Positions 15,270 to 52,000 of a stretch of DNA of 64,000 bases are shown one piece after another. The stretch lies in the NCBI GenBank assembly GCA_965153455.1, contig OZ234493.1, positions 22,620,213 through 22,684,212 on the forward strand, given 5' to 3'. The notes below the pieces were generated by a model. That model ran no database searches and was not told the origin of the DNA. It worked only from the letters and a program-made list of their open reading frames with translations. Positions within the stretch are counted from its first letter, which is position 1. Each line of letters begins with the position of its first letter. The translations under genes and the position numbers were made by a program. This DNA comes from Sphagnum compactum. Taxonomy: Eukaryota.

Positions 15270-18200
15270 TTAATCTCTACTGGGTGGACTGTGCAAAGCA
15301 TTGCTATTTTCAAGTTTGCCTGCATAGCTCCACACGTTGGTTGTTGCATCTGGAGGGATCTTCACCAAGCCTTCTTGTTTTTGCTTTGCCTCAGCAGCAG
15401 CCTCTAGCTTCTCACTAGATAGAAAATCTGCCAAGACTTGGTTAAAGTGGGGTCCTTGTATGAGTATGGTCCCTTCTGTAACATCATTTCGTGGTGTTGA
15501 ATTGAGTGTCAGGTTTGCATTCACAGTCGGTGAAGTATTTGGAGACACGTAATGGGTAGTGGTATGAGGATTACCCACATTTGGTAATTGCACAGCATAA
15601 ACTCCATTTGTCCTCTTGAGTTGGCGGGTGGTAGCGGTTCCAGATTTTGCTGATGGTGGAACTGCTGGAAAAATTGATGACATCCTGACAAGGTTATCAG
15701 CATATAGAACATCATCAATGCGTGCAATGATGGTGGACGCCAAGCTTTCCAGCACGCGTGAGTAGCTTTCCAGTATGGATTGCCCTACATCCTGCAGATG
15801 AAGTGCAGACAATCTCAATCAGTGACTGCATTGCAACCACTAGCACCGTCAGCACCTTCCAAGATGTATGAGTGCATCTACTACACCACTTTGGGGGTCA
15901 AAGACTGGCAATCAAAACTCACAGGTTTAGCGTTTAGGGCCTTACCCTGTTGTACTGAATCTTGTTCATGTCTAAAGCTGTCTGTGTCAGGCCTGGAAAA
16001 CGCTGTTTCAAGCAGAGGAGCAAACTCTCTGCTCGATCAGTGATTTGCTCACGCTTGTTCTCATCTGCAACGAAGTCTTTCATGATTCCCCAAGATGATT
16101 TTGAGGCTGGATTTGACTGCTTCGTCTGAATCTTGCGTTGCCATATGAGGAGCGCTGTCTCTAGCCGATCTGCTATTTCCAATTGACCATGCTCACTTGA
16201 GAGATCTAATGTAGATAGGAATTGTGCAGCTGAGAAATTCTCAGATGAAAGTCCTTTGTATAGAGTATCCCCAAGGCTTGCCTTTCCATTCTGCATATGA
16301 ACATATGAGGAGTTAAGGAATCAGCCAATTTGATCTACAAGATTGCACTTTGTTTTTAGAGCATCTCCTGCCTCCATCTATTGCACAGCCTACACAAAAA
16401 CCACACTTTCTAACTTTAAGTCAAAGAGACCAAAAATGAGTTGAATCACAGCCCGCACCTTCGGAAGGGAGTCCCAGTAGGCTTCAGGGACTTCCATCTC
16501 AGATAAGACCTGGCCATTGATGGCCATAGCTGCTTTGAGTATTTGGCTCATGCACTCCCTTTGATGTTGCAATTTTCTTCTCGCTTCCTCAGATAACCCA
16601 TTGACTGGAACTTTGGGAGTGGGTAGCCACCATTTCTCTTCTTGTCGTTGAAGAGAGAGCTTTGGACCCTCCCGGGTATCTCTCTCAGCCATTTCAATGC
16701 CCCGATCTACATACCAGAACTCTGTTTCTGTGTAGCCATCCAGTGAATCCTGTAACAAAAACATGCACAAATCAAATCAAATAAGCAAATTTATTCACCA
16801 AATGATGAAACATTAATTCCCAGCCCAAAAACAACTCTTGGAAAGTTAGCTCCCAGGCTCACAACCAGGATCTTGTGGAAACAAACGTACCAAGATTTTA
16901 TTTTGCTGCACACTGCAAGTGCAAAAATCACATTTTGCTTAATGCTTTTTCACAGGTGAAGCAAAATGTTGTGTAGAGTTTTGATCTGTGAACATACCAG
17001 CAGCATGGTATCCAACTTGCGCAAAGCTGGGAGATTTAGGTGAAGATCTGAGCGAGGCTGGCTCACCATCACCTGCATTAAAACATTGACAAAATGCCTC
17101 ATAATTTGCAATCCATTTAGGGTGAACACATTTCACTCCAGAAGCCAACAATGGGTGTAGTGGGAAAGGAGAGATAAAGAGACCCATGTACAGAATCATG
17201 GTGAAACGAGATGTTCATGGGTAGATGATCCTTACCTCCAACGTACTACCATCTGGAAAAGTTTGCCATGAAGGGACCAACTCTACAATGTGGTCACTGA
17301 CTGAGAGAAGCCATTCCATTTCCCTCCTCCATCTTGTACGCCGATCCTCAGCAAGTGGTTCTAACCTCTGGAGCTCACCAAATAGGGAAGCTGGCACCAC
17401 AAAAAGTTAAATCAGTTTCTTTCTTCCAATTTCGGTACGAGATCTCTTTTACAAATAGGCAGATGGATTCATGCCTGACGCATGATGTCCTTTGACAAAC
17501 AGCCTGCATAAAATGCACTGCTTTCTGCGTATATTGTTGACAGCCTTATTGCACAATGCAGAGCCTTGCCAGGGCCACTGCAAAGTGCTGCTGCACTTCA
17601 TCCATTAGCAGGGGTAGAGACAGGAGAGGTAGGTTAATCTTTCAGTAGCTGGCTAGTACTAGTGCATTGAAAGTGTTTTTCTGCTTTACCTGAGAGATTT
17701 GTAATTGCGTTGGAGATGGCTAATGCAGTACACACTCCTTTAGCACCACCAGACATGTCGTCCCCGAGGAGCAGCTTTGCAAATCTTTCCTTCATCAACT
17801 CTACCTCTGCACAGCAGCAGCAGAAACAGGTGGGGAACAAACCAAAAACACTCAGCATATACCTAGTAGTGCCACATGATTGGTAGAAATAGGAATTTCT
17901 TGGAGACATCCTTCGATGTCTACAGTCTGACCTAAGCCCACTCACCCACACACTCTTACTATCACAAGACAGAAAAAACTACCCACAGCAAAACAACACA
18001 ACATGAAGGTCATCATCAAACAGCAACTGTAGCAGAGTAAATAAGAGAAAACCAAAGAGCATCATGAGGCAATGATCATCACACAGGTACTACAGTTTAC
18101 CTTTGAGACCAACAGCAGCCCAAAGACAACAAAGTCTAGTAACATGGAAATTGTGTGATTATGATCACCAGGCATGACAATTTCACAACAGCAGCAACCA

Positions 18201-30332: not shown

Positions 30333-31248
30333 CGTTATACATCCAAATTTTGTCATTCGTTGGAGGTCCGTCGACAGAAAAAAACTATTTGTTGACTTTA
30401 TCATTCATCTCGCCGACAAGGTCCGTCGTCCAATTTTTGTTTTATCAACATCAGGGTTTTCCTTTTTTGGCGAAATTTCGGCAATTGGCGAAATTTTTTC
30501 AAATTGAAGAAATATATATATATCCTTATTTAAACTGAACATAATTATTGTTTCCTTTTGTAGTCACCAAATCTGGCTAAATCATCTTATGGATGATCAC
30601 CATCTCGGCTCCATCACAAAATTATTGGAAAAGAAAAAAACCCCCACTCAACATTTGAGACCAAAAACATTTAGTTATCCAGCATCTACCAACATCACTA
30701 ATCCACTTGAAAAGTGGTTGAAGACAAAATTCTCTCGTCACTTTTGCCACTTTGGTTTCTATGACAATTGCATCCATTCAGTCAAGACAGATACAGGATG
30801 CAGGAAACCTCAAATACCGCATTGAATAAGGTGCAAGCACTACATGCATACCTCTTCCTTTGTATTCAGACACCAAGAATTCCCCGAGACATTTGATTTT
30901 TCAACCTGTTAAAATGCTGCAATCAGAGTAATTTGATTGAAATTGACTCACATCTTGTGGATAAAGAACTCTGAACCAATGTAAACTGGAAGAGGTCCAT
31001 GGTCTTCCTTCAAAGAAAAGCCACACTTATGAGGCTCCAGAACACTTTCAGTTCTTTTTCTTTGGAAGAATCGATACTACCTACAGAGCCTCTAGTGACA
31101 TCTTCAAGCAGGGTATGAAAGTGTTCCAATCAGTTATGACATCATAGGTTCTAACTCAAGCATCCAAAGTGATGCAGATTTTATCTCCATTTCTCAAGGT
31201 GGGCTCAACAGTTGACAATGATTTACAAATGCTGTGTGGCAGGAGTGA

Positions 31249-34200
31249 TCACAAGTGAATCCGAAGCATCTTAGTGACCCGCACTCCACAGTTGGGCTGG
31301 TGACAAATATCAACTGGCTTCGTGTTCTTGCAATCCAAACATGGTCCCAAATGCCCTGTACATAATGTTGTCACTTCAAGAGATTAGCCACTTTCTTTCA
31401 TCAACGATGGAAGATAACATCATTTTCTTTCAAGGGAAGGGTGGAGCAGGGGTGGGGTGAACTACAAATAAATCTTGTGTTCTTAGTGTAGCCTTCTGTA
31501 GGGAGAGCCCAAACTTTGAAGGAATCAAACATCTAACCAGAGACAAAGGTAACATATCAAAAAGACTTGCCAAAGACATGCTACCCCCTGTGAGCAATCA
31601 TGTATGCAATAGGATGGAGATGGTGAGACTTACGGCAATCAAGAATCAGATGATCTGGAGGTCTTGCATAACAGTAGCAACATAAATGGGCATGTTTCTT
31701 TTGTGCTGGCTCTGCCTCATTGATCATGATACTTTCTGTAGGAATTGTGTTAAAATGATCTTCAAGCTTTGATGAAGCTGAGAATGCAGATGAACTTGTA
31801 GCCATCACATCAGAAATAGATGTGGCAACCTGTGGAAAAAATGAGAAGCACATGTCATTTGGCAAAGCATGACCAAATCATCTGTAAGGATTAGGCAGTA
31901 CCTAAAAAATAAACATATTTTCTTGAGAATGATGTGAGATTATCCACTCAGTCACCCCCTGGTAATTACTTCATCTTCCAATAAACCAGACAGTAAAGAT
32001 GACAGACTAATCCCCATTCAGAATGATGCCTAACAGTGAAATGCCTAAAGTCAACAATCTGCATGTTGGCATTCATTAGGAGTTGACCAACCTCCATCTT
32101 GTACCATGTAACTGCTATGCTCCAATATAAGGCTGAGCTAACCAGAAACAATTAAATACATTTTTAAAGTGCAATTTTGGTTGACAATTGAAATTTCCTC
32201 GTCTGCTCAGGCTACTAATTAGTGGTGCAGGAGGCGCAAGAGCTCACATGGTTTACCACATCCCTGCGTTGAAGGTAAGTTTTGTGCATGTCGTATGCCA
32301 TAGTCCATGCCTCACTGTGAGGAGAAAACTTTACTCTGCACAGAATGAAACAATAACAGCAAATTACTATTGCAGAGTTAAGATATAGAGAGCAGAAAAA
32401 ACCTAGTTGGAAGACAATTGCTCTACAGTGCACCCAGTAGCCGTATTGACCTCTTGCAGGACAATCTTGGCCATCTCTATATTAGTACTTCATCCTGCCT
32501 AGTAAAATTAATTTGATTGGATGTCACAGGACTAAAACTCTACATTAACTACTTCAGATTCACACAACATCTCCATTTACCAGGTCAATAAGGTGTGAAG
32601 TCCAGATCACTGGAAACATGAGACTATCACTTGTGATGTATGGTCAAAACTACAGACATGGATGCCAAACATATCAGGTAGACTATGTCTGCTATTGCTG
32701 TGAGCTGAAGTTTCTGCACCAAGAATCAGACAACACCACAGCTACTCAATTCCTTCTATTTACCATTCATCAGGCCTCTCTCCAGCTTACCTTAACCAAT
32801 TTTCATGTTGACTTGACGCCTCAACAATTGCACCACGTTGGAATAACCCTATCTCTTTTGCAGTCTCTTGGGGCCCTTCTCTAACCCGATGCTCTTCTTT
32901 AGGAGACACCACCTGTCATTGTGCAAACAAAGGGATTAGTCCACCAGATCTGACTATTTTGAGTGGCTATCCAAATTATGCAGGATCTTCAAACATGTTG
33001 AAGGAAACTATTCAGGAATTTTTCCAAGAGAGAACTTCCCTTTGGGTTCAGATAGTTTGCATACCTCATACAAACATGGGAAGTGCAAAGATCCAGTTGG
33101 TACACTAGAGGTTGAGGAGACCTCCATGTGTACTGCTTCTTGAGTTCTAGTCAAAGACTCAGATGACCCTGTTGCTACTCCCAGGAAACGATCCTGACTG
33201 ACTGACAGGTCAGAAGACGTGGAACTTTTGAACGGCAGTTCCTTATCACCCATTTCCCCCTCAACCTGTTGCTTTTCTCGATCTTGCTGAAAAGCAAGAG
33301 GGTTGTATGCCTGCTTGGGGCGAGGTAGTAAAAATTGAGATACTAATTCTGGAACTGGAGTTGGGTGCTGAAGTGGAGGGTTCTTCACCAAAGGTTTATA
33401 CACAGATAAGGATCGGAATTGAGGGTCTAATGGATCACGTTCCACTGGCTTTGAGGCAGTGTCATGTGTTTTCTCCTGTTGGTCTGCAACAATTGCCTGC
33501 AGTTTTCCCAATACCACTTGAGATCTCTGAAATTCTTCGAACACAAAATTTTTCATTTGCAACACTGAATGAGTTAATGAATGACTGATTCTAAAAGGCT
33601 AGTAACTGCAATCACATCCAAGCTCTCTATAATCACAAGAGCTATTTCACCAGCAGGAATGAAGTGCTACACATATCTATGGCACCACCACTGTTGGCTT
33701 CAAAGTCTAGTTATACCACAAATTTGCGACCAAAAATATTTAATTTCATAACTTCTGCAAGAAACCAGCATCTTCAGCTCAATACATGTATGAAGCATAG
33801 CTAAACAATATCTCTGTCCATCCAGCCAGCAGTAGAACACAGATGCCACCTCAATAGCATAGCCACCATCCTGGCAGTAGCTTCTACATACCTTTGGAAA
33901 CAAATGTGGAAACAGTTCCATAGGTGAAAGCTGTGGCCTTTCTTTAACTAGTGGTGGTATGGTTTCTTCAACTTTGTTCTCTAGCTCCAGTCCCAGTTCT
34001 GATCCAACTGTGCTTGCTTTGGGTGACCATGACTCATTTCCTGGAAAGTTGCCATCTGATGATATAGAGAGAGGGCTCGGAGGTACTGCAAAATCTAATG
34101 AACTAGTTGTTAAATTGAGATTAGCAGGAGCAGATACCCTATCCTCTGAGGTAGTCTTCTGCAGTTCTGTATCAAATTTAGTACGAGGTATACCAAAGTC

Positions 34201-37200
34201 CATGCTCAAAGTTTGGGCCTTGTTTTTCAACCTCAATATTGACAAAACCTGGTTAACCTGCAGTCCAAAAATTCTGATTAGGGCTTCATACATAGGTTTG
34301 GTGTTGAGAAAAGGGGTGTACACACCTAGCCGTGCCCTTGCCTAAAAGGAGCAGTAAAGATCTCATCTCAAACAATCTGTGTTGTCCTATGGACATCCTG
34401 AATCATTTCAGTTCATTCCACCTTGGATACAAGTGGAACAATCTGAACGAATGTACATTCTCAGCAAAAGTGACTCTCTGAGAGAAAACCCACAAAATGA
34501 AAACACTTTGCATAGGAAGGATCATAAACAAAGGGGATGAATTCACCCCTTTATGTTTGAGACCTTTGTTCACAATTGCAAAATGTCTGACTTTGGAATT
34601 ACTGTTCACAAAAGATGGTCAGTAGTTTCAAAGTAACTGGATTCTACAGTTGTCCAAAAGTTGCAGATACATATTTCCTTAGCTGCACCTAGACACATGC
34701 ACTATATGCTCCAATACAATTGTCTCAAGGTTTCTGCACCATATCACTAGATCCATATATGTATAGGAGAAGTTGCTGCTCCTATATAAGTCTGATGGAG
34801 GACAAAAGACTCACATACCTGGGAGAAAGAAAGGTACAGAGACCTGCCAGACATCTGAGTGGCACCAGGGTGCACAGACTCAAGCTCTGTGCCTGTGAGT
34901 GAAATAGAAAAATCATGCAAGGTTTCAAACCCAACTGAAGGGGCATACACCAGCATAGACTGCATTGTGGGTCCCATCATCTGCATCATGGGGCTAATTG
35001 TTATGAACTTAGCTGAATGGCTCCTATTTTAACTAGCATAGCCTTCAATCAATAAGGAGAGAAGCTTGAAGTAACCAGATAAGATATACAATCTTCTCAA
35101 GAAGGTGTTTCCATGCATCAATCCCACAAATCAGAAACATCAACACTATTCTTTGGCATGCAGTCAGTTGCTCTTTGTTGACTTTGTACCTCAGCACTAC
35201 CCTCCCTGTGCCACATGGAGAGAACCACAAGTTGTCCACCCCACTACTTATAATAAACAGTCCAGATTCAGGGACAGAGATAACCCTGGATGGCACAAGC
35301 ATAAGGGCAGATGTGTAACATACCTGCTGCATCCCATATGAAGAGGATTGGTACACTCCAAATGTCTGCTGTGTTATGATGTTGTAAAGAAAAAGCATGC
35401 AGGTGCCAGGAGCTATGTGAGGAACTGCCAATAGATGCTTTGTTGACACACAGAAACGCCTCATCTGCTTGTACATTGCTAGTGTCTCGTCATTGCATCC
35501 TATCACCTGATTTCAGGCTCACAACCACCAGCCATATCCAAAATTAGACATGTGCGCACTTCAATGGTCCTACCCACCATATTTTTCTTCTATTCTTCCT
35601 CATCAAGACAAAGTTGCCTATTTACCAAACCAAGGGCAGAGATGCTGGAAGAGAAGTGACCACTTACTTGGCCAAAGAGAGAACTTGGTTTGCTGTACTC
35701 TTGGACTGGATAAGGAGAAGGTGATAAGCTTGGTGTACCATACTCAAGGGGAGGGAAACCAGAAGCTGATTCAGTCTGTGTCAGCATCCAATTGGGTTCA
35801 TTGATATTGTTGCTGTAGTAAACATGGGAATTATTGTTTTGGGGAAAAGGTGGCTGGTGAAAGTCAGGGGATGGTGGAAATTGGTAGTCGTGAATAGTGG
35901 AATAATGTGGTATTCTGTTCTCATCAGCCTTGACAGAAGAGACAGCACCATCACTAACATGCATGAAACTTCTTGTATCTACAAGGGGTGTTCCAGGTCG
36001 AGAAGAAGAGGTGAGGCTACTTGATGCAATGGAGGAATTGCCAATGCCAATTGAGGCAGGATATGTTGCATTAGAAGCTGTAGCAGAATCCATTTTGGAT
36101 AGCCCAGCAGATATTGACCCTGCTGCAAGGGTCCCTGCAGTGATAATAGATGAGTCTTCTGTACGTCTCAGGCCGTGCACTGAGGATTCTCCAATCACAA
36201 ATGGCTTTGCAGTAACCCGCAGTGTGGTCCCAAAACTTTTCATGGAAGTTCCTTTCAAGACCTCTGAACTCTCTGTCAGCTGGCCACTAGATGAATCTGA
36301 ACCACATGGAATTGTTGTAACAGGTGACTTGGAGACAGGTTCAATGGTTGAGACTTGCAACAAATTTGTGCCATGCAATTTTGGTGAGACAGCATGTGGC
36401 ACAGAGGGAGCCAATACCATTGGCAGTGTCATGGAGTTAATAATTGGAGTTGGACTTGCTCCTGGTCCTGATGCTTGTAATTCTGTTGGTTGGCAGGACA
36501 GTGTTGAAGCAGGTTGTGAATTTATGGCACATTTTACTGCTGGTGCAGGTAGTGGAGACCCAGGGCGCATACTTCCATGATTATGAGAGATTTCATCATG
36601 TTGCATTGTGGCCCCTGCCATGGCAAATAATTGACTTAGCCCAAAAGTCATTAGCAATTGACAATATGCACAAGTATGAAGAATAAAGCTCTAAATGTTC
36701 CATCCACTACTCTTATCCACAATACCTGCAACAGCAACCTGAGAATTTCCAGAACAGAAAAACGTCATTGACATCATTGTAGCCAGCAAGGCCTGAAACC
36801 CTTATACAAAACCAAGCTGACAAGAGGTAATGCATAACTCACTCTCAAATTCATGGGCAAGTAAGTATTCTTCAGCCACATTGTAGAAAATATCAGGTGG
36901 AAGTTGCTGCACACATTCAAACATCTTCATGAGAAAGAGACATTGACCAATTTTGAAGCAGTGCACAAATGAACTGAAGAAACTTGCATTCTTGGTTCAT
37001 AAGGTGAAGTGCTGCAAAAACAAAATCCAAGGAAACCTGTAAGGATGATAGTTTCAAACTTCTTGGTGTCAAGTTGACTACTCATGTCTGCCGTAGACCA
37101 TTCTGTTTAAGAGCAATGACTTTTTCTTACAGCCCATTATGGTTGTGAGACAGCTCCCTTGTTTCCTCTACAGATTGTGATCATGAAGTTTGTGCAGATT

Positions 37201-40200
37201 TTTCCCAAGCCCCTATTGAAATTCTCTTGCCCTTGTGAAAGGCATTGACAACCTTGCATTTTGCTCTAGGACATTAAGTCTTGGTCACAACTGTTGTACT
37301 ATATTCTTGCTTCTGGACACACATGGGCTCCACACCTGGAACAAGATGATAATAATGGAGACAACTTTTAAGAAAAAAGAAGCAACCTTGCAGACTAGTT
37401 CAGTAACCACCCACCTGCTTAAGAAAGTATGCACACTTCAGCTTCATCCCATGCACAGATGTATCATTGGTAAGAACTCTTGCTGTTATAGCTTCTTCCC
37501 AAGATCTGCAATATGAACTCAGCTTATTAGATCTAGTCATTTAGCCTCTAATACAGCAGTCCTTAACATGATTTGAGATCAGATTCAGCTGTGTACAAGT
37601 ACATTTGTGCTAAACCCAACCCTTCAGTCAGGACTCAAATCATGATAAGTTACAAATGAAAACTATAAAATGTAGCATATGTAGGCAAATCTCATGGTTG
37701 ACATGTGATTGACTTAGAGACCTTGAGGCAACAAGTGCTTGCGTTGGCAACAGAAGCCCATGAGAGCCAGAGGTCAAAAGAGGGAAATAGAAAATACCCC
37801 ATGGAAACTGTAGCTATGTGGTAAAAAGGAAACAGTTCCAACTGAACCACTGTGCCTCCTTGAGTGAGGAAGTCTTTTATTTCTGCATAATCTGCTTGAG
37901 GATGCACATTTTCAATGAGCATGTGCGGTGATCTGATGCTTTCCTGCAGAACGTTGTATGAGTGAGCAGTAATACCTCAGGGCAAACCCTTCTACTATGC
38001 CCAAGAAAGAGTGAAGAAGAAAATCCCCTCGTTTCACTTAAACATTAACTTGCAACCAAACCTTGTCTTTGTATTCATGCTTATACATGGCATAGGTGCT
38101 TTTTGTTGCTTTAACATGTCCCAATACACTGTGTCTCTTATACATACACAATACTGAAACTGCAACCAGAAATTGGATGCTTTACCAGACCTTAATTTTC
38201 AAAATACTACACTAAGAGACAACTGGCTGCTGAGTCTGTGAAGACCTGAGAGTGTATCACAAACCTGGAAGAGCTTGCTGTCAAGACATTTGGGTCAAAT
38301 GGCATCACAAATTTCCTCTACTAAACTCCATGCAAAACATGTGCAGCATTTCTATGCATGTCTCTGGTCTGGGGTGCACAGCTGTAGTCATGTCTGTATG
38401 AGTGTACCTGGTGCTCTGGGTCCACTAGTAAGGACCGTTCCTTCAGCACAGCCAATGGTGTGAAAACTGTTGATTTGGGGTTTGTAATAACAGAACTCCC
38501 ACCTGCAGACAGTGGCTGGTCACATATAAACTGCAGTCAGTAGGTAAGAACAGTGATACCCCTTGTCAACAGGAAATATGCAGTGTTGCAGAGGTGACTT
38601 GAGCACATATCTAATCTAAACAGGATTAGATCAATCCGGCTGGGTGCTAAATAAAAGACAACCAAAGATGTCTTCTCTGCTTCAATGAAAAGCATAGGAC
38701 TACTGCTTGTGCTGGGGTAAAAAAGGGGAGAATATCACTCACTGGAAATTCAGCCAACAGCTCAGAGGTGAGAGATGACAGCACTTGACCACTCCAGTCA
38801 CCATGTGCCATTCCAACCACACCTGAGTCAGAATCATCCTCCTGTTCTTCAGCTGAAGGGAGAGTGAAACCATCCCGAAACAAATGAACCTTCTTCCCCT
38901 TTGACTTTGATTTCTTTACCTGCCAAAAAATCATGCATGCAAATATGCCAATAAGGCAAAATCACTCATCCTACTGAAAAGAGCTGTCTCTAAGTCTCTT
39001 ACCTCCAAAGCTTTATCAACCTGATACCCTACCATGGGCATTGGTTACTGGGCCTTCATTCAAAGGGCAGACTTTAATCCCTCAATGTAAGTGTGCCTTT
39101 CACTGTAAATTTAAAAGTTTCTACATCAGTTTCTTGAACTCTTTGGAAACATCAGAATTTCACAGAAGGGTGTCTGAGTCTCTGTCCACTTCACTTCAAT
39201 CTGCCTGTTCATTCATTTCATCATTGCCCATCATATGTGTCTTTCTCACTTGATACCCACCATCTATAAAGAAAACTGGGGTTACAAGGTCATGTCATCC
39301 AAAGCTCAAGCTAAAACCACAGCCTGTCAACACCAAACATACTGCTCTTCAACAAGCTCATGCAGGAAGCACAGACCTTGGACTTTCTCTTCGGCTCCTT
39401 TGACACTGCCATAACTTCTTCATTCTCTTTCTTGTACACCCGAAGGGGCCCTTCTAGTACAACTGTTGTTGTAGTAGAGTCTTCCCCAGCTGCACTAAGC
39501 TCCATGTCCTGTCAGACATACACCTTCAATGATATAGATCTGGAGACTGACTACATCCAAGTTAACAGTTGTACAGCTGTACATCTGGTGGTAGTTGTCA
39601 CTAAAAAAAACAGTTTGCATTTAGCTGCATAGAATTTGGATAGAAACACACATAATCATATCTTTCATGAGAATAGAGAAATCTCCGTTCTCACGATGAA
39701 GAAGAAACAGCAAGGCTAACACTTCCTCAGGAAGCCACAGAAAGAACCAAACAAGGGAAGACAAAAAACGAAACAAAAAACAAAAAACACACATAATCAT
39801 GACATAAGCAAGTTTCAGCCAGAACATTGCACACAAGGTACCTCTTCAGGGCGGACATCACAAACAATTGGTACATTGGATGCAGATGCATTTGAGAGTT
39901 CAGCAGACTCAATACAATCTCTCCTTTCAAAAGACTCAGATGATGAGGAATCCAATTTTGCAATCCCTGCTCGCTCTGCAATTTCAGCTGAGGAAGGTCT
40001 AGCTTCCTTGGATTTTCGCTTTGCCCTTTTCTCCTGGATCACGAATTGAAGAGGATCCTATGAGCAAATCGATAGACAATAGAGAGATACCACAGGTTCT
40101 TGAATGCTCATGTCTTAAGGTGCACAGCACACGAGGTAGAGGAGGTGAGAACTTGAAAACTCCACTACTTCAACCTGACAAGGTGTTTATCAAAACTCCA

Positions 40201-43200
40201 AAACAAGGACTACACTTCAGGAGATCTTTGGCATACAACTCCTTGAAGCATACAAGTTGGAAAACCTATTATTTTGACATACAGACAAGCACAAGCACCA
40301 CATGCTAGGATCTCATCAAGACTTAAAACTGGAAGATTTTGCAAAAGACAGTATGGAAGATGAGAGAACCATGGCACTGCAACTTTGAAGAAAAACCTAT
40401 AGTCATGAAGTAGAAAAAATACCAATCTTTTGCTCTGTGAAGAAGGAAGATCTCTGTGTGCAGCAGGTTTTGTCTCATTCTTCAATTCCTCTACAAGCTC
40501 ATGTATAACCTACCAACCAACACAATGTGCATCATACACAATTACAAAGAAAATAACTCTTTATGAACCAACCAATCACAGAAGTTTTGCACCCTTGGCA
40601 GAACATCAAATGTACATGGGATTGCAGAGAAAACTCCACAGTCAGCACTTTCCAAGGTAACTGTTCTGTCAATTCTCAGCAAACCAAAACCAACACAGAA
40701 AGAATAATGGCAGTCATAACATTATGAACAACATTCACAAAGTGTCAGACCATCATCTTCATCATAAATGGCAATGACAAGCTTCCATGACTCCCACTTC
40801 ATCAGCTCCCAACTCAGGTGTATGTTGAACTTAATGAAAATTAGAAATAATATCAATATATATAAATAATAATATCTTGATATCTAAATAATGATATTCC
40901 GCACAAAATTTAAGGCAAACCATGATACAGACACCTGCATCCTGAGTTTCTGCATCCTTGGCAGGACATCACAGTGGGATACATCAGCCTGTCCAATCAA
41001 TACCGCACTAAATTTCAGACAGATCAGATTGACCCCCAGGTGAGAAGCCATGAGCCATACCTGCTTCCTTTCTCGAGTTTGGACTTTAATTAGCTTGCCT
41101 GGGCAATCTGCACCCACAACCAAAGCCAATTTTAGTTTGTAACATTCCAGGAAGAACTTCTACAAGTAACCACAACAACTACAGACATCTAGATGAATAC
41201 AATACTATTAAGGACCTTGATTGCTACCTTCCCCACAATGGAATACTGGTTTAGGGTTTAGGGTTTAGGGTTTGGAAGATGCACTCTAAACCAGCATTCC
41301 AACCACAGCATAGGATTAGAAGATGTATCTTGTGAGCTTAACAAATGTAAATACTACACCAGCTACTGTTCAGAAGCATGAACAGCTATAAAACCCGTAA
41401 GTAAGGTCAGCTGACCAGGAGTCACGCATGCAGCCCCATGCACCATCTTCCAGTCAGCATTCTTATCCTGGAAGTTCTTCTCAAAATCCTGCCAGCATGC
41501 CTGGAAGTGAAATGACAGAAAGCAACCCTCTGAGCAGCTGAACTCTATCCGCCTGTTGGATTCCATAATGCTTCGTGATCCATTGGGGCATTGATCAGCA
41601 TTTAAGGCTCGACATAACCCTATCTCTTCATCAACTTCTTCAAGTTCAGCTCCAGACCTATGCATCGCAAGAACCTGCAGCTCTGATTCCCTCTCCACCT
41701 GCTTATTCTCAAAAAGTTCCTGTGCCAGGTCTGGTTCAAGCTTTTCAAGCTTGCTTCCAACATCTGAATTCTGTCTACTTTTCCTAAGTTTCTCTTTAGC
41801 TTCCAAGTTCCCATTTTCAAGTTTTATCTCTTTCTGTGCCTTCTGCTCATGCTTCCACAATATATTGTCTCGCCACTGCAATCATTCCAACAATTAAGTC
41901 CAGCAATTTCTGTCCAAGAAACTCCCAGACAGGTCATCCCATGTGATACAACCCTTTACACTGATCAATGAAATAACCGAAAAAACAATCTTTGTTGTTT
42001 TTTTTTGTTCCCAAATGGACATCCTTATACAATTCAAAAGACAGTACCTGCTCATCTACTGGTGCAGGGTTTGGAACTTCAGATTTTTTGTAGAGCAGAT
42101 GTCTTGGTATGCCAACAGCTGTGTATTTGTACTTAGACCTGAATGATTCTAGTGCCTCACTCCGAGGTTGTTGATTTAGTTGATCTTCTTCTTCTGCCTT
42201 GTTGACATTCGTTGTTCCCTCACCTTCAGGTATTCCAACAATGTTCTGGTTCTGCAGAACATGATCTTTATCCGCAACTTCCCCAACAACAGAAGCAGTG
42301 ACATTTCCGGGGAATCCTTCAGCTCCAGAAGCTGGAGATTCCTTTTGTATCCTGGTCCTCAGAGCACTCCTAATGACAAGACAACAATTAGAACCACACA
42401 TTCCCAGGCATGGGAATAACTCTACAGTTTTAGAGAATTCTTCCATAACATCAAGAGGGACCTAAAGAAGACCTAAAGCTACCTTGTGGATGTTATAGTA
42501 GCTTGGGAAAGAGCAAGAAGAGGACCAGAATTTCGCTCTGTAAGCTGTTCAATTTTGATTCAGAATTTCACCTAAAACTGCAAGGATCGGTAATGGATTC
42601 TTTGGTTTAGGCTTGGTGAATTCAGAACCCCCTGAATCTTCGAAACAAACTGTCCTTGAGAGAGCAGAAGGAAGGACAATTCCCATGATCAAATCCTTTC
42701 ACAATGCTCAAAGCTCTGAGAGTGTGTGTGTGAAGGGATTCTCACCAATCCAAAGCCTTCTTGTTCAAAAACCCCCTCTTCAACGCTCCAAACACATTGT
42801 GGAACTCGGTAGCAGATTTGTACTTCCTCGAGTGTTTATGATCCTCGTAAACTTGATGGTACTCATTCTCATCAAGCTCCGAATCCGATTCCTGCCAGTC
42901 GCTCCACTCCGAGAGTGAGTCCCCGCTGCTCCCTCGATCGTCAGAGAAACCATGACCGCCTTCCCGCACCAAAGACGATTCCGCAGCCCCAGCTTTGGAG
43001 GTCCGATTCTTCGAAACCTTGGAGGTCTCCGACCTCTTGTCAGCAACCCTAGCAGCAGCAGTAGCAGCAGCAGGGGCCCGAGATCGATTCCTCGCAGGCT
43101 TGGATTTGTCACTGCCATAGCGGTCAGACGGTGCCTCTGCGCCAAGAGTATCACTGTCTCCGCTATCAGAATCCGCCTCGCGTGAATCACGCCACAATGG

Positions 43201-43569
43201 ATAGCAGTCGCGTGACTTGAAGTGCGACAAGAATCTGGCTTTCACGGATTCATGACTGCTGTGGGAAGAAGACATGACAATGAGCTCCCCACCCGACGGA
43301 TTCCCAGGCCGCGTCCATCGACTGATAGCCGTGGTATGCGACGAGCCGTCCTCCTGCGGGATACTGATGATAGCGTGCACCACGCGCGGCATGCCACCCT
43401 CTGGCGCACTTCCACTATCGGAGTCGTCGTCATGATCATCGTCGGAGTCCTCCATGCGACGTCTGTTGTTGTTGTTGTTGTTGCTAGTGCTGCTATTGCC
43501 GTTCCGCGCGTTCTGATGCTCCTTCACGCTTCTCTTTGTCTCACGCGATGCTGCTGCTGCCGCCGCCAT
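31249..43569 (-). CDS. Uncharacterised ~1727-aa multidomain protein: TTC3/DZIP3-like Cys/His domain + RRM + DCD domain + C-terminal C3HC4 RING (putative RNA-binding E3 ubiquitin ligase)
   Basis: Manual 21-exon model: 42746-43569, 42048-42351, 41416-41875, 41061-41107, 40423-40509, 39842-40033, 39377-39508, 38802-38919, 38408-38502, 37798-37943, 37415-37505, 36726-36738, 35626-36614, 35324-35506, 34819-34980, 33892-34257, 33065-33526, 32791-32912, 32248-32335, 31634-31829, 31249-31355. All GT-AG, total 5184 nt, no internal stop. Some junctions in low-complexity parts are uncertain, and a two-gene split near 37 kb is not excluded. Confidence 0.7.
41248..41273 (+). repeat. Intronic telomeric tract (TTTAGGG)~3.5
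   Basis: ggtttagggtttagggtttagggttt inside intron 3 of the large gene. Confidence 0.8.
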
Positions 43570-44142
43570 CGCGTTGCGACCCGGGGAGAAAAACTAAGGG
43601 GCCGAAAGAGGGGGAAAAAAAAACAAAAACCAGAAGAATCTCTCGCGCTACTTTCGCATCAATCAAACTGTCTCTCCAACAAAACTGTGGAGAAAGAAAG
43701 ACTTCGCATCCACTAGCGAGGAGAGAAAGCCCTTCTTCGTATCTGCATCAGAAATCCCTGCGTAAGTCTTACCGATACTGTTCATCACCTGCATAAGTTT
43801 TACATAAGTTTTACTGATCAGCGCGTTCGATCTCACTCTGATTCGTGCAATTTCCGAATGCACTTCCTTTTCGTCGTCTTCTTCTCCTTCTGGTGCTACT
43901 TACTTTTGACCAGCAAACACTCTTGCCAAGGATGAAAGCTTTGTTGTACAATAGAAAAAGGGAGAGACAGACTGAGAGGGGGGCAGAGCAACAGGGGGAA
44001 GGAGTGGCATTGTGTGTTGTTGAGCTTGAACTTGCTTTACAAGTTGCATGGCCATGATATAGATTTGATGATAATGTGTGGCATACTGTGCCTTGAACAA
44101 TTATGCCAAGTGCGCAGCTTTGGAGATGGCATTAAATGGCAG

Positions 44143-44445
44143 TGCAGATGCGGCTTGAATGTGCAGCAAGTAAACATGTCAGACAGGAATAACACAAGTG
44201 CACAACTCTTGAGATGCGGGCGAGCTACAAAGGATATTGCAGATTCAGCTTCAAGATGCAGCAAGTTAAACATGGTAGACACAAACATCGCAAGTGCACA
44301 ACTCTTGAGATGTGGGCAACAAAAGATATTGCAGATTTGGCTTCAATGTGCAGCAAGTAATACAAGGGGATAAACTCTTGAGACGGATGGCAACAAAGGA
44401 AATTGCAGATTTTGGCTTTGAATGTGCAGCAACAAGTAAACATCA
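44143..44445. repeat. Degenerate tandem repeat, ~3.3 copies, period 74-95 bp
   Basis: tgcagat..ggctt.aatgtgcagcaagtaaacat starts at 44143, 44238, 44330 and 44404; aactcttgagat/c follows in the first three copies. Confidence 0.8.
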
Positions 44446-45179
44446 CAAGAGAATTTCAGCAAAAGATTTAGTAGGAACATGCACCAATGCCTCTCCTTCC
44501 TTACACATTACATGAGAGTTCTTACATGCGTGTCTACTTCTAATGCAAGAAGGGCAAAGGCAAGTGCATTTCTAACATGAGAATAGACAAAGCACAAATT
44601 CAACAAGTTCTACAACCATATCGTGGGTACCTCATTAGCTTTCTTAAGGAATCTAGATGGAAATAAAATGACATATTCTGAATGCTTTTTTGATAACACC
44701 CATCATCTTTCTTCATCTTTTTTCCACAAGCACCCACCTTTCAAAGTCTGAGTTTGCATTCAAAACATGAATAGCTCAGACTTCCAGCACCCATTGGCCA
44801 TTTTAGCACCCTCAAGGATTTTCAACACAATAGACTATTCCCCAACAATTGAACACACAGCATTGAGGATCACCAACTATGGGATTTCAATTACTAAGCT
44901 CTTTCAATGCTCTGTTTGAAATCTTAAGAACATGTGTATATATATTCCATGTAGTACCACATCAATGTTCCAAACCCTCCAATGCATCACATTCATCATT
45001 TTGAGTAACAGAGCTTAGGATTTGGCACAACTTCAGCAACAAGTATGAAATCTTTGAATGCAAGAACAACTGTCTATACACATTATCAGTGAACTAGCTA
45101 TTGTCACCTTTATGCTCCAGATTATCGATTCTTAGAAACCAGAAAGTGCACTGCACTCACCTAAAGCATTTTTGGAAAC

Positions 45180-48100
45180 TCAGACAAACATCATGAGCTC
45201 AGGGCGGCTGTAGCAGTTCTGCCCATCATCTTCCAACACTGGATATGCAGCTACTAAGCCATCTTGTGCCCCAATGTAGAGAGAGTTGTAAATCTTCCAG
45301 TAAACTTCTCGCACTTTCCTGGCAGGATGGAAGAGACCCTGCAAGCAGTAGCTCAAAATGATAGCAGGTCCAAGTGCTACTCTCATGCCCTCAATTGCCT
45401 CCATAACAGCATTTATTACATGGGGTGAAGTCTCAAATATGTTGGGCCAAACAAAATTTAGCAAGTGGATGAGCGCATCCTCACAACCCAGTCCTGCAAC
45501 CCCCAAAGCCATGTGTTTCACTGCTGATGCAGCTGTCTGTCTGTGGACAAGGTCACGATCCATCAGTGCATCTTCTAGAAGTGGGGTGACTGCATAGATG
45601 TAGTCCTTCCCCATTTCTCCAATGTACTCAAAAAGGAAGGAAAGTGACTTCAGCACTCCATTTTGAACATTTAGCTCTGGCACACGATACTCATTCATCA
45701 GTGCAGGAAGCACTGTGAAGGGGGAGCATGTTTCAGCCACAATGGCTATAGCCACAGTTGTGCACACACGATTTTGCCTTTCCTGAACCTTCAGATTGTT
45801 CAACAGTGTGGCCAACACATCCTGGGGTCCAATGGCTTTTGCAATGTAACCAAACGTGTTGACTGTTGCTCGCCGGATCCCCTTCTTGTGGGCCTTCAGC
45901 ATCTCCAGGAGCTCAAAGCATATCCTCATCCACTCCCGTGCAGGGACAAACTCTGCTCCCCTGTCAGCTATGCGCCCCACCAGATCAATGCAGTTCTCCT
46001 GCACCTTCTCATGCCTGTTTTTCAGGATAGGAGTCAGGCGAGGAAGCAAATCCTTGATCGGGGGTGTCATCTTCGTCATACCGATGACATTCACAATTGC
46101 CTTCAATGCTCCCAGGATGGAGCCCAGAACCTCTGGGTACTCCTCTCCCAGGTATTCATACAAGACAACCCCGAGATGGCCCATCAGCTGCTCCTCATGG
46201 CACTGTTTCATTACCACTGCAATGCGAGATATGAGGTCAGCTGCTTGCTGCCGGACCTTTGCACTCTTGTTGTTGAGCCGCCACTTGATTGTACCACAAA
46301 TTTGAGGGAGATATGGCTTCACCCTCTGACCCATTGCATTCACCACCGTACCAAACCCATTGAGCATCACATTTGCATCATCACTGGTCTGCTCTTGGAA
46401 GGCATACAGAATGCCGTCGATCAGAAGCTCCTCCAGCCGAGCATCAATGTCAGAAGCTCCCAAGCTGGCTACCACTTTCTCGATGGTTTCCATCACCATC
46501 CGCCGGTAGGGTTCGCTTTCATCTTTCAAGTCCTCCACCACTCGGCCAACAATGTCTGCCACTCCCACTTTGTTGGCAACCTCCACCGTCGTGTCCACCA
46601 GCTGCCGGTAATTCCTCCGATCCAGGGCCATCCTCCGTACCCAGAAGTTGCGAAAGAATTCAGGGAGAATTTCCTGCCTGATGTAACTTGCCTCCACCCC
46701 TTCTGTGCTCACACATTGCTTGACCACCTTAAGAACTATCTTCTTCATCTCCTCATCAGGGGATTGGAACTCTCTGATCAGGATAACCATCACCTCCTTA
46801 GTGTAGTAGCTTGCATACATAGCATCCATCAGGGGAATGATGAACCCAATAGCTTTCAAGAATGCAGCCAACACTTTGCCTCTGTGTGACCGAATACCCT
46901 TCCACAGAGGCTTCAACACAGAGTCAAAACTCTCAATACCATAGGGGGCTGCAGCCTCAGCCAGGGCTGCCAGTGACAACGCAGTGATAGTTCTGACCTT
47001 CTGGTTCTCATCAATAAGACCATGCTCAATAATTTCTACGAGGGATTTCAAGTGAGGAAGGACTGCACAACCCATCAAAATTGCAATCTGCTGCACAATT
47101 TTGATACCTGTGTGCCGTGCCTGCCATGACTTCTTACTTTGACAGACAGCCTTCAAAAATGGCAAGAGCGCAGGAATACCCAATGCAGAGGCCACCACAC
47201 TGAAAGCCCTGGCTGTTGTGTTCCTCACGTACTCATCAATGTTATCAATATCTGGCCTCATAGCAGCAATCATGGTTGCCAGTCCAGCAGCCTTGCTCAA
47301 ATTGGATATAATCTCCCGTCCTTCCACACGGGCATAGTAATCTTCATCAATCAACAAAGGTTCAATGACCACAAGAATCTTGTGAACAAAGGGCCTCACC
47401 AACTCATCCAATTTGTACAACACCCTGTCAATTACCTTCACCAGCAGATGCCGCTCTTGATCTTCTAGTGTCGGGGACATGAGCAGTGGAAGAATCTGAT
47501 TGAACAAGGGCCCTGCACCAAGTTCTCTGGCCTTGTCTGTCAGTTGTCGGAGGGCAGTTTTGCGCTGTGAAGGAGTACCATTCTTGACCTTGAGCAGCAG
47601 CTTCATGATCTTGCGCTCCTTGCTCTCTTCAGCCGTCATCTCCTCCTCTTCCTTCTCACTCAACAGAGCACCAAAGTACTGATAGTCCTCAGGTTTCATC
47701 ATTGGCAGGCCACCGGCTGCTTCTTTTGGAACATCATACTGCTGACTGCGGTCCTCCTCAGGGATGGAATACAGTGGAGTGCCACCCAATGGTGTAGGTG
47801 TGGCCAGAAGCTTTCGGGCAGGTGTTCGGATTGGCACATAAGAGGCAGGTGGGTCAAGAATTTTGTAACCTTCCATGGGAAACATGGCCTCCAATTCCTC
47901 ATCAGACAGGGGCCTATTCCTGTCCTCGATATCCTTCTCCCACCGCAGCATGTTGTACTGCTCTGGAGTCATAGGTGCCCGTAGTGCGATATGGCCAGGT
48001 GTAGGTGTAGCAAGTTCGATGCCACCCATAGGAGTAACCCCAGGAGTGAAAACAGAAGGTGTGGCACCTGGCATAGGTGTAGCACTGCCCATGGTGGCAG

Positions 48101-49043
48101 GGGTTTCATCCCACCGCGACCTCTGTTTCTTGGGCGTAGGAGTGGCAAGGCCTGCGAGCTTGGGAGTGGCATCCCAGGTCATCCCTGCGGGAGTGGCACC
48201 AGGGGTAACTCCTCCAGCAGGAGTTGCATCCGCATCAGAGGCCCGCCCAGGGGTTGGAGTCTCATCCCAGCGATTCCTACGACTTGCAGCAACGGGAGTG
48301 GCATCCATAGAAGCATGTCCAGGCGTGGGAGTGGCATCCCATCGACTGGGCCCTGGAGTAGCATCGGGATTATCCCACTCAGATCCTGCCTTGGCCTTCT
48401 TCACCTCCTCCGGCTCGACGTTCTGATCCCACCTGTTGCGTCTCTTGGATCCGGCACTCTGGGTCACGGCAGCAGTTGCTGCCACAGATGCAGTTGCAAT
48501 CTGGGCTTTGGTAGGCGCTGTGGATTCCTCTTTAGCCCTCCTTTCAGCCTCCTCTTCCTTCTTCTTTGCAATCAAGCGTAGGGTTTCCTCCTTGTCCCGC
48601 TTGAGAGCCTCCTCCCTCATAATATCTGCATAGGTACGTACAGCGGCATCGGGGGTTTTATCACCCATGGCAAACGCATCATTCCTATCAGGAGAGATGA
48701 TGCGGTTAAGTCGCTTCTTCCTATAGTCATCTTCACGGTCGATAATCCGCTGCGGCTTCTTGAATCCCAGCTGCTCATCCGTGACTTCACCGCGGGGCAA
48801 ATCCGCAAGCACACTCTTGGGAGCAGTGTAGGAAGCGAGCTTTCTAGCCACTTCTCTCTCCGTGGGGTCTTGCGCCTCTTCCTCGTCTTCATTCACGGGG
48901 ATAGAACGCTCGTAACCCTCGAACCTGTTAGCGATTCCGTAAAGCTCCCGGTCGAAAGTAAGAGACGAGAGAGCCGCAAGCTCCGCTTCCTTCTGACGCC
49001 GCTCCTCTTGAACCCTGGCGATATCAGCATCCATGGTCTCCAT
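45180..49043 (-). CDS. SF3B1: Splicing factor 3B subunit 1 (SAP155), intronless CDS
   Basis: Single long ORF; first ATG at 49043 ([10 protein letters not shown]). N-terminal RWD/TP repeats ([23 protein letters not shown]) followed by the HEAT region (KLLLKVKNG...[64 protein letters not shown]). Confidence 0.98.
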
Positions 49044-52000
49044 ACTGGGAACCCGTCCTTCCACCTTCCACCTTCTTCTATGGCACACTTACTTAGTGCT
49101 ACAACGATGCGCCGACTGCAAAAGTCCCTAACCAAACAAAAAACTCTCCGGCGTTAATCCGATCAGACCACACACCACGCTTTTATCTCCTCCCCAGAGC
49201 AACAGCACCGACCTCCGGAAGCCACTTTGCAAACAACAGAAAGAGAAACGAGCGATCAAACAAGCTCCTCAAGAGAAGGAGAGAAAAGACCGCTCGCTCG
49301 CTAGCGCGCGCACGCGGAACCCTAATTCTGCCCTAATTTCCGACACCCTCTCGTCCCTGTTAAGCAGGTACACGTTTCCGGACGTAATTAGGTATTTTAA
49401 TTTAAAACTACTAATATTTCTTTATTTATTTCTTGGCTCTCAAAGTCTAGCCTCTCCTTTGTAAGGGAGAGGATAAGGATATTTATTTATTTAATTATTT
49501 ACTTATTTATAAGGAAACTATGTAACTCAACTAGGTAGTGTAAGCTTGTTTTCCATGGGGAACTTGCAATGTGCCCAAAAGTTCCTTGGGGAACATGATT
49601 TATCCTAAGCAATTGGGGAACATATGGAAACCATGTTTGTTCCCCAAGAATGACCATCCTTCCCTTTCAAATGAAAATCATAAATGACAAAGATTTCTAT
49701 TCTCAAACTATTTGAACCCAAGACTTCCCACTTGGAATGGAAATGATCAACCAATCTACCACATCATTTAATTTACAAAAATGTAAAAAATCCCAACCAT
49801 ACTTAACACAATCATCATAATTGAGGGATACAATAAAAATATTAATTGAAGATTTTTATTTTTATTTTATTTTTTTGCTAGGCATCCCTACAAGCATGCA
49901 TATTTCTTGCATTGAAGATTGAAATACACTTAATCCATTACACATGTTTAGTGCTTGCTAGCTTTCACTTGGTCTCACATTTCGAGGATTGTTCACCTTT
50001 AGGGTTTTTTCTTTCCATTTTGTGATATCATAATTTTGAAAAAAAATTCCAAAATCTTAGCAAATTTAGTCAAATTTGAAACTAAAAAACATAATTTTCC
50101 AAAATTTTCACGATTGTTTTTTGAGAAAATGTCGAAACTTGTTGGAAAAAATCATTATTCACCTTGTGTTATTATGAATTGTGAATTCATGTTTAAGGGA
50201 TATTTCATGGACAATTTCTTGTTCAAAATATATATTGTTGGTTTGAAGTTTGAACCCATGTTGGCCCATTCTTTTCTATGTTTTCATAATCGAAGGGGGC
50301 AAGGTCTTTAGAAAAATAGGGTATCAATGATTGAATCTTCAAATTTTTGAGATTTGTTTATGATCAATTTGTTTGTTCAAACAATACACATAGTTAGCAC
50401 AAAAAAAATTGGATTTTTTAAAAAGAAATACTTACTCACTTATTTTGAACAAGAGTCAAATTTAGAATATTCAACTTGAAAATCATCTATGATAATGTCA
50501 AGGTGGGTTTTTGTATTAAAAATTTGTACTAGGTCTAAGAATACTAATGTTATAGCATTACATCACACTTCAAATAACATGAAAATGGATTTTGAATCTT
50601 GACAAATGTTGGTATGTTTTTTTATTTTAATGGGAACCTTTAGTCCCAATTTTGAAATTTTTTAGAACTTTGGATAGAACATTTGTTCTAATCCTAAGAT
50701 TGGTTTTTTAGATTTCTAAAAGCTTTGGTTCCTTTTTTTTTTACAAAATTAGATCCTAGTATGATTTAAAGCAAAATCATTTCCATTACACACAACTAAA
50801 TATAAATTTCTTTGTATATTATTAATTCATCCACTCAATCCCCATATTCCAAGGGAAAAGTTATGTCTTATTAATTATGCACAACCAATTAAAAGTAATT
50901 ACTTGCATACAAAATAAGGTTAGGATATTAAAGTTATCCATAAAATGACCTTCCATTTGGGCCCTTCTTTCATACCCCAACCCCTTTTTCATCCTTTAAA
51001 CATTGCCATCCACAAAAATAATAATTTTTTATGGAATTCAGAATTAAATACACGAAGTTTGAAAATATTTACAATTGCAAAACACATAATAATAACAATG
51101 ATTTAAAATATTTAAAATTACAATACACACAATAACATCATTGATTGGTTGAAAAAATCAAGAAAAAAATGATAGGGTGAAATTTAGATTAACATCAAAT
51201 TTGATGTTAATATGAGTTTCAATCTTGTTTAAGCCTAATGGCTTTTTTTCATTATTTTTTAGAAATTTCACCCCCTTTATGACCAAAAAAAGGGGCGATG
51301 GTGCTATGTTCTCTTCATTTTATAATTAATTTTATTATTTTCTAAATGAAAAGTTATATTGATTTACCTAAAGAATTTAAACATGTAGAAAAAAGGACCA
51401 CACCTTTGGTTCGAGGGTTCTACTACAATTTATTTTTTAAAAATTTGATCACCTAGTCTAATTCCAATGGTGGTTCCAACAAAACATTGAACCACTAATG
51501 TGAATTCCTTGAAACCTAACTTAGAACTTGGACTTGAAAAATGCATAAATCAAGAACTTGTCACGATTGGTTTAAACTAATGTTGGTTAATCCTTCTTTT
51601 TTCATAATTGAAAAGGCAAGGTCTTTGGAAATTATATTATTTTTATCCAACAAAGGGTACCAAATAATCAAATTTTGAATTTTTTGAAACCTTTTGAACA
51701 TCAATTTATTTGGTTAAACAATACCCATAGTTACTAAATTCTCTAGTTATGTTTCTCAAATGCCCACCTATTATACATGAAGGTTGGTTTTGAAATACCT
51801 AACCTAATAACCACCTTATATAGTGTGAAGGTAAATTTTTTTAATTCAAAGTTTTATTATTGAAAGATTCAAAATCTCGTGGGGATCAAACATGGAAGTT
51901 TTGGGACAAATGGATAAGTACAAGTCAAAAAAAAAATTCATCAAGCAAATTACCCAAACCAATGTATTGATTTCAATTTTTATTGCATCTTTACAATACA

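Follow-up and report, generated by a model that had tools for sequence, protein, structure and literature searches.

In a 64,000-nucleotide stretch of the Sphagnum compactum genome (contig OZ234493.1 of assembly GCA_965153455.1, positions 22,620,213 to 22,684,212; referred to as the window, in whose numbering all coordinates are given), positions 31249 to 43569 hold a real and expressed gene on the minus strand. It encodes a mostly disordered protein of ~1750 residues that contains, from the N- to the C-terminus, a zinc module of the TTC3/DZIP3 type, an RRM fold, a divergent DCD domain and, very probably, a RING. Sequence comparison places the protein in a small streptophyte family, and we give an even chance to the reading that it is a putative RING E3 ubiquitin ligase that is directed to RNA or ribonucleoprotein by its DCD and RRM, i.e. 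a 'reader-directed E3 ligase'. This is the simplest reading because a PUA-like reader stands by an RRM and a RING ends a long disordered chain with basic patches. The DCD domain, probably aided by the RRM and the basic patch, would dock the protein on RNA or a ribonucleoprotein, and the C-terminal RING would then recruit the ubiquitin-charged E2 enzyme and ubiquitinate proteins bound at the docking site. E3 activity, nucleic-acid ligand and substrates are in this scheme predicted from the sequence.

The coding region extends from ATG 43569 to the stop codon at 31249-31251 and comprises 21 exons (Table 1). All 20 introns are GT..AG, and the spliced coding sequence of 5253 nt, corresponding to 1750 amino acids (aa), is open throughout. 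An in-frame stop at 43594-43596, taken from the list of open reading frames (ORFs), lies just 5' of the ATG; RNA contigs reaching up to ~43647 represent the 5' untranslated region, and the 3' untranslated region extends to ~30900, with read depth seen down to the bin 30967-31433. An earlier reading made from the letters of the window alone (the sequence-only reading) had proposed 21 exons with canonical splice sites, which the RNA-based model bears out. Its frame of 5184 nt, however, has to be replaced by the one based on RNA and orthologue, and its join ALGL|VIGC by LFGQ|VIGC (donor 35667), as given by RNA contig ends. Among the four spliced motifs it had listed, the first, the second, the fourth and most of the third are present in the spliced product.

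Altogether 17 RNA runs, within 21 runs from 9 studies, contain 0.33-0.44 of the sampled words of window positions 33600-43599, which is about the exon share of this region. These data stem from metatranscriptomes (moss and plant) and from a coded organism; four of the runs were mapped on 30500-44500. The stranded poly(A) run X22 contributes 974 reads in this interval, 680 of them at ≥99% identity, and all exons are covered. Its first mates lie nearly all on the plus strand (e.g. 21.7 vs 0.65 in the bin 35637-36103), i.e. the RNA comes from the minus strand. Spliced reads support at least 14 of the 20 introns, with 4-19 reads each in X22 and, additionally, spliced contigs in the metatranscriptome runs X1 and X5, and 14 of the 15 joints listed are CT..AC on the plus strand, corresponding to GT..AG introns of the gene (for the fifteenth see below). 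The join between exons 2 and 3 is also read through by the metatranscriptome-derived proteins P0012 and P0016.

The remaining introns were placed by two other means. Introns 13 and 16 follow from RNA contig ends: the exon 13/14 join 35668|35506 (..SSLFGQ|VIGCNDE..) is set by loose ends at 35506, and the exon 16/17 join 33892|33496 (..HLFPK|AIVADQ..) by those of X1 and X5 contigs. For introns 6, 14, 15 and 19, splice signals and reading frame gave a first placement, which was then fixed by P0020, an 'unnamed protein product' from S. jensenii. This orthologue shows 96.3% identity over residues 581-1750 and has the same exon joins, that of exons 13 and 14 included. P0020 matches the exon 6 donor, where it reads ...DVRPEEDMELSAAG...; for exon 15 it reads ...GMQQMMGPTMQ..., and the acceptors 35007 and 34959 were rejected in favour of 34980, with which the spacing in the algal homologues agrees; for exon 19 it reads ...RRRDMVNHVATSISDV..., and donor 32256 was rejected in favour of 32247. 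The P0020 model starts inside intron 5 and thus is devoid of exons 1-5 and the zinc module. At exon 8/9 it uses another acceptor, which inserts FIYDQ, whereas 15 spliced reads in the window give ..AEFP|PLSAGG...

The coding frame is under purifying selection. Over the whole gene, introns included, the metagenome contigs L001-L003 share ~97% identity with the window, and in all three the coding sequence is intact and 40 of 40 splice dinucleotides are kept, with a ratio of nonsynonymous to synonymous substitution rates (dN/dS) of 0.40-0.43. Relative to related contigs, the indels in exons are all multiples of 3 and those in introns have lengths of 1, 2, 4, 5 etc. Mismatches to L001 amount to 91 of 5259 positions in exons and 267 of 6947 in introns, counted on an earlier variant of exons 15 and 19.

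Relatives of the protein were found in Sphagnum and in two streptophyte algae. When 1.84 billion representatives were searched exhaustively with exon 3 (HMMER), four matches were obtained, i.e. a moss ORF, ME000058S08624 from Mesotaenium endlicherianum (1318 aa), a fragment clustered with GAQ89571.1 from Klebsormidium nitens (KFL_005370080, 1700 aa), and P0003, a coiled-coil repeat protein that we rejected as a spurious match. Searching with exon 13 returned the Sphagnum orthologue and three paralogues, P0021 (S. magellanicum CY35_02G016300), P0022 and P0023 (both S. jensenii), which show ~54% identity across the query and ~61-63% across a longer alignment. P0021-P0023 contain all four modules, arranged as in the S. 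compactum protein, and lack the exon 18-19 stretch. In the two algal proteins zinc module, RRM and DCD are collinear with those of the window and occupy similar positions; identical residues number 28-31 of 73-75 (zinc module) and 37-40 of 133 (DCD), and the linkers are unrelated. The four-domain order proposed by the sequence-only reading is real and recurs in the Sphagnum paralogues, and its first three parts also occur in Mesotaenium and Klebsormidium.

A word-index search with exon 3 found nothing, and one that used the zinc region of P0022 returned the three Sphagnum paralogues and nothing else; as the latter search missed the known algal members it carries little weight for other plants. 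No other land plant was matched in the one exhaustive search, which used one exon as query and cluster representatives as target, so that an absence of the family from other land plants is a lead and not a result. The deposited names of the relatives are 'unnamed protein product', 'hypothetical protein' and 'DCD domain-containing protein', and we found no paper on the architecture, on PF19179/DUF5861 or on the four accessions in the literature covered, which excludes supplementary gene lists. The novelty suspected earlier hence holds in so far as no study of the architecture was found, but does not extend to the sequences of the relatives, which are already public, though unnamed.

Domain scores in the following refer to single exons of the window or to homologous proteins standing in for the spliced product. 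The zinc module comprises aa 468-545, encoded by window positions 41620-41416 and exon 4, the latter carrying the final Cys pair (..TPDCPGKLIKV..). The Pfam domain PF19179 (TTC3_DZIP3_dom, gathering cut-off 26.9 bits) scores 18.4-20.8 bits on exon 3 alone, which is below the cut-off because intron 3 cuts off this final Cys pair. It scores above the cut-off in all three Sphagnum paralogues (33.2-33.5 bits) and in Mesotaenium (27.2 bits), and below it in Klebsormidium (21.5-26.1 bits). The module of the window matches those of the paralogues in 60 of 78 residues, and the kept ligands, seven Cys and one His, would be enough for two zinc ions.

The resemblance to animal TTC3 and DZIP3 (hRUL138) lies in this shared Pfam module and in the location of the RING at the extreme C-terminus, and DZIP3 has been reported to bind RNA. 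TTC3 and DZIP3, however, contain TPR repeats and a RING of the RING-H2 type. In Sphagnum only positions 54-113 of the 116 positions of PF19179 are matched (30-113 in Klebsormidium), Pfam finds no TPR at E<=0.1 in the four Sphagnum proteins, no other shared region was found, and the RING is of the C3HC4 MGRN1/IAP type. The exhaustive exon 3 search matched no animal protein either. Because no TPR repeats were found, the RING type differs and the sequence search gave no animal match, the relation to TTC3/DZIP3 is, as judged from sequence, one of a shared module and not of orthology. The former label 'TTC3/DZIP3-like' is therefore appropriate for a zinc module of ~60-85 residues but not beyond, with no TPR or other TTC3/DZIP3 feature at E<=0.1. 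A predicted fold of the module (P0004 first, 7-row alignment; mean predicted local distance difference test score, pLDDT, of 67) had no Foldseek match in the PDB at E<=0.001; the best one, with an E value of 0.35 and a template-modelling (TM) score <0.25, is no evidence on the fold. Residues 425-545 of P0022 weakly resemble the Headcase N-terminal domain PF15353 in their language-model features (0.84). Pfam does not find PF15353 at E<=0.1, and a distant link between these Cys-rich modules is a lead only.

The RRM spans aa 787-862 and is split between exons 10 and 11. Its fold is secure from profile comparison: a profile built from six family members (A1) has 44 matches among PDB sequences at E<=5, 43 of them RRM proteins (best E 1.7e-5), e.g. 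cS22, PTB RRM4, RBM14, GW182 and Y14, all aligned within profile positions 574-729 with a core at 639-712. In line with this, the Klebsormidium member is named 'RRM domain-containing protein' in UniRef. On single window exons Pfam finds neither RRM nor RING because both are split by introns, and RRM_1 is not reported by Pfam at E<=0.1 in P0021-P0023. A conserved QLPPDIFYN motif follows just 3' of the RRM, in exon 12. Ahead of the RRM lies a basic patch that includes KRKSK in exon 7 and continues into exon 8 (KKSKSKGKKVHLF). Its exon 8 part aligns in Mesotaenium and Klebsormidium, and the patch is a possible nuclear localisation signal.

The DCD (aa ~1196-1330, exons 14-16) was correctly recognised by the sequence-only reading, as Dev_Cell_Death (PF10539) exceeds its cut-off of 27.8 bits on exon 14 alone (30.2 bits) and in the orthologue P0020 (34.4 bits, Pfam positions 2-124 of 126), the DCD of which matches that of the window in 129 of 135 residues. 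The score stays below the cut-off in P0021 (27.0 bits) and in both algal proteins (13.2-16.9 bits). The usual DCD motifs include FGLP and PAQV. In comparison with canonical plant DCD proteins, the domain described here scores over the Pfam cut-off and keeps the LFLYN and G-x-Y-x-S-S-S motifs, whereas FGLP and PAQV are not kept and the domain lies deep inside 1750 residues, together with an RRM and a RING. By sequence, it is a divergent DCD. The canonical plant classes are NRP, B2, Kelch-DCD and ParB-DCD (Tenhaken et al. 2005, cited in PMC7641849). PMC7641849 assigns DCD, together with EVE and YTH, to the PUA-like superfamily and predicts it to bind modified RNA and/or DNA; RRM, TTC3 and DZIP3 have 0 occurrences each in it, and the combination of DCD, RRM and RING is not found in the passages considered. 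A family profile search found no DCD structure by sequence in the PDB.

The C-terminal module (aa 1697-1750) has its first ligands in exon 20 and the rest in exon 21 and is, from its sequence, very likely a RING. Its ligands, C-x2-C-x11-C-x-H-x3-C-x2-C-x8-C-x4-C, are followed by a tail of 12 residues, a pattern invariant in both paralogue groups, with all eight ligands invariant in four Sphagnum sequences. Moreover, the module is the best-kept stretch between the Sphagnum paralogues (48-49 of 54 residues) and its LILDCRHL core is invariant. It has nine matches among PDB sequences at E<=10, seven of which are RINGs of MGRN1 or MDM2 (E 0.15-0.83), and among the language-model look-alikes listed all named clusters carry PF13920 (score 0.93). 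With the RINGs of MGRN1 and plant LOG2-LUL, MDM2 and IAPs it shares the spacings of the first six ligands, the LIL-x-CRHL-x-x-C-x-x-C core and the short C-terminal tail; it differs from them in the last pair, which is C-x4-C here and C-P-x-C there, and in a Pfam score below the cut-off. The 'IAP-type RING' of the sequence-only reading has all eight ligands and resembles the RINGs of MGRN1, MDM2 and IAPs, with these two reservations. A predicted fold of the RING from a 5-row alignment (mean pLDDT 41) was unusable, and a prediction of a homodimer with zinc, made without controls, scored 0.31 against a mark of 0.32 and is evidence neither way.

RING ligases that carry RNA-binding modules are known from animals, e.g. 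MEX3, Roquin, DZIP3 and CNOT4; none of this kind with a PUA-like reader was found in print. Several observations weigh against a reader-directed E3 ligase. As to the RING, zf-C3HC4_3 (PF13920) reaches 15.6-17.2 bits (E 0.004-0.014) in the four Sphagnum proteins, with a cut-off of 27, and the last ligand pair is C-x4-C instead of the C-x2-C of the canonical, PROSITE-type C3HC4 spacing. Neither algal gene model contains a RING, i.e. the ligase part may have been added later or may have been left out of the algal models. The step from exon 19 to exon 20, which joins the RING to the rest of the protein, is the sole such link without a spliced read among the joints listed, and it rests on P0020 and the paralogue models. 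As to the RRM, RRM_1 (PF00076, cut-off 20.7 bits) scores 14.9 bits in P0020 and 18.3 bits in the Klebsormidium protein P0005. The consensus of RNP1 and RNP2 contains aromatic residues, but here RNP2 (LIENV) and RNP1 (HIATVSM) are without base-stacking aromatics and resemble those of protein-binding RRMs, the RNP positions being similar across the family with one Phe in Klebsormidium. The RRM named by the sequence-only reading is upheld as a fold, with the canonical aromatics missing and Pfam below its cut-off, and RNA binding by it is, from these motifs, not assured. Finally, PMC7641849 itself gives the ligand of plant DCD domains as unknown.

The alternative that survives best, although we consider it unlikely, is a non-catalytic scaffold, in which the C-terminus would be a degenerate RING-like zinc knuckle and the protein an adaptor that binds RNA or protein in stress or cell-death pathways of the DCD type. 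Such a role would accommodate the low Pfam score and odd last pair of the RING as well as the algal models without it, in which case the family would have zinc module, RRM and DCD as its conserved core. A degenerate knuckle, however, fits poorly with a module that is kept better than any other between the paralogues, ligands and core included, and on whose RING subfamily three independent look-ups (Pfam, PDB sequences and language model) agree.

We regard as rather unlikely a ligase directed to chromatin or DNA, in which the DCD would read a modified DNA base, the RING ubiquitinate chromatin proteins and the RRM bind protein. The RRM without RNP aromatics would suit this role, and the basic patches could be nuclear signals. 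The fusion of a PUA-like reader to a RING is an established design in UHRF1 and plant ORTH/VIM, which combine an SRA domain with a RING. The likeness of the present protein to these modified-base readers would be one of design; it has a DCD instead of an SRA domain, contains an RRM, is without PHD or Tudor, and has no sequence relation to them that we found. On the other hand, the RRM fold and its fixed pairing with the DCD in three lineages lean to RNA, and Pfam at E<=0.1 finds no PHD, Tudor, SRA or other DNA or chromatin domain. In favour of this alternative, PMC7641849 infers a reading of modified DNA for prokaryotic DCD domains and keeps DNA as a possible ligand of those in plants.

That the locus is in fact two or more separate genes, wrongly fused and split near 36.7-37.4 kb, as the sequence-only reading had feared, or before the RING, is barely credible: short reads never span one whole molecule and intron 19 is without a spliced read among the joints listed, but 14 spliced reads each cross 36613|36842 and 36906|37415, by which a split at 36.6-37.4 kb is very unlikely, depth is even and confined to a single strand from 43.6 kb to 30.9 kb, P0020 spans exon 6 to the RING, and P0022 (1671 aa) and P0023 (1679 aa) are annotated as single proteins with zinc module, DCD and RING (by Pfam) and RRM (by alignment).

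Table 1. Exons of the Sphagnum compactum gene in window coordinates, with the evidence for their ends (reads are from run X22; cut, offset of the splice site as placed at the joint)
Feature	Residues and content	Position	Strand	Evidence for ends
Exon 1	aa 1-275	42746..43569	-	donor joint 42368|42745 (cut +1): 6 reads X22 and contigs X1, X5
Exon 2	aa 275-382	42048..42369	-	joints 42368|42745, 41875|42048 (14 reads X22)
Exon 3	aa 383-536; coiled charged stretch, then bulk of zinc module	41416..41875	-	RNA joints
Exon 4	aa 536-551	41061..41107	-	joints 41107|41416 (13 reads), 40507|41059 (cut +2, 12 reads)
Exon 5	aa 552-580	40423..40509	-	joints 40507|41059, 40032|40422 (6 reads)
Exon 6	aa 581-644	39842..40033	-	acceptor RNA-backed; donor at 39841 inferred
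Exon 7	aa 645-688	39377..39508	-	acceptor inferred, matches P0020; donor joint 38917|39375 (cut +2, 19 reads)
Exon 8	aa 689-747	38743..38919	-	RNA joints
Exon 9	aa 748-783	38408..38515	-	joints 38515|38743 (15 reads), 37942|38407 (11 reads)
Exon 10	aa 784-832; first RRM half	37798..37943	-	RNA joints
Exon 11	aa 832-862; second RRM half	37415..37505	-	joints 37505|37798 (14 reads), 36906|37415 (14 reads)
Exon 12	aa 863-884	36843..36906	-	joints 36906|37415, 36613|36842 (14 reads each)
Exon 13	aa 884-1199; Ser/Thr/Pro-rich linker, end ...SSLFGQ	35668..36614	-	unbroken RNA contigs 35666-36613
Exon 14	aa 1200-1260; N-terminal DCD half	35324..35506	-	donor CAG|GTATGT inferred, matches P0020
Exon 15	aa 1261-1314; mid DCD	34819..34980	-	both ends inferred
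Exon 16	aa 1315-1436; DCD end (to ~34210), then linker	33892..34257	-	acceptor inferred, matches P0020
Exon 17	aa 1437-1580; linker	33065..33496	-	unbroken contigs 33063-33498; joint 32910|33063 (cut +2, 8 reads)
Exon 18	aa 1581-1621	32791..32912	-	joints 32910|33063, 32335|32791 (14 reads)
Exon 19	aa 1621-1650	32248..32335	-	donor 32247 (CAT|GTGAGC) inferred
Exon 20	aa 1651-1716; first four RING ligands at 31691-31634	31634..31829	-	acceptor inferred, matches P0020; donor joint 31354|31633 (cut +1, 15 reads)
Exon 21, coding part	aa 1716-1750 and stop; last four RING ligands and 12-residue tail	31249..31355	-	RNA joint, read depth

Exon 1 contains two short blocks that are kept between the Sphagnum paralogues, aa 57-100 (MPRVV..IPQEDGSS..ISRWTRPGNPSGGELIVMSS) and aa ~255-275 (KYKSATEFHNV..LKRGFLNKKALDW). 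Neither block has a Pfam match, and a K/R-x-GF-L/F motif also occurs in the algal N-termini.

Two introns harbour repeats of high RNA depth. The repeat in intron 4 (40620-40753) has a depth of 157-344 in the contig runs, where contigs continue into unlike sequence on both sides, and the fifteenth joint listed, 40640|40735 (GT..AT), is part of this repeat and not of the gene. The repeat in intron 6 (39654-39793, ~140 bp) reaches a depth of 41.8 in X22 and up to 3393 in the contig runs, and again many reads continue into unlike sequence. It is absent from this place in L001-L003, with a 91-93% identical copy upstream of the gene in L001 (1712-1849) and L002, and is probably a small mobile element. 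As Rfam gives no match at gathering scores on the whole window, these repeats are not known RNA families.

Directly upstream of the gene and on the same strand lies an uninterrupted ORF of 1302 residues (45180-49088, minus strand) for the splicing factor SF3B1 (Pfam SF3b1 172.6 bits, plus HEAT repeats), which is apparently intronless. Exon-sized ORFs of other genes, with Pfam matches, are located at 12570-13950 (plus strand), 15270-15818 (minus strand) and 61201-61788 (plus strand); they correspond to a chlorophyllase that is split into two or more pieces (86 and 234.5 bits), the last part of a PRONE RopGEF domain (51.8 bits) and an F-box (38.8 bits).

DCD proteins have been linked to stress and cell death. 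The position of the DCD between an RRM and a RING suggests a job for the domain in this family, i.e. the reading of nucleic acid followed by ubiquitination, and may provide a handle on the DCD ligand. The patchy range of the family, which comprises Klebsormidium, Mesotaenium and Sphagnum and no other land plant in one exhaustive search, poses a small evolutionary puzzle. Taking the reader-directed E3 ligase one step further, the protein might represent an ancient streptophyte 'reader-writer' ligase, in which the DCD would read a modified RNA base, e.g. 5-methylcytosine (m5C) or N6-methyladenosine (m6A), and the RING would attach ubiquitin to the proteins carried by this RNA. We consider this quite unlikely, but, if true, such a ligase would couple the epitranscriptome directly to ubiquitin signalling.

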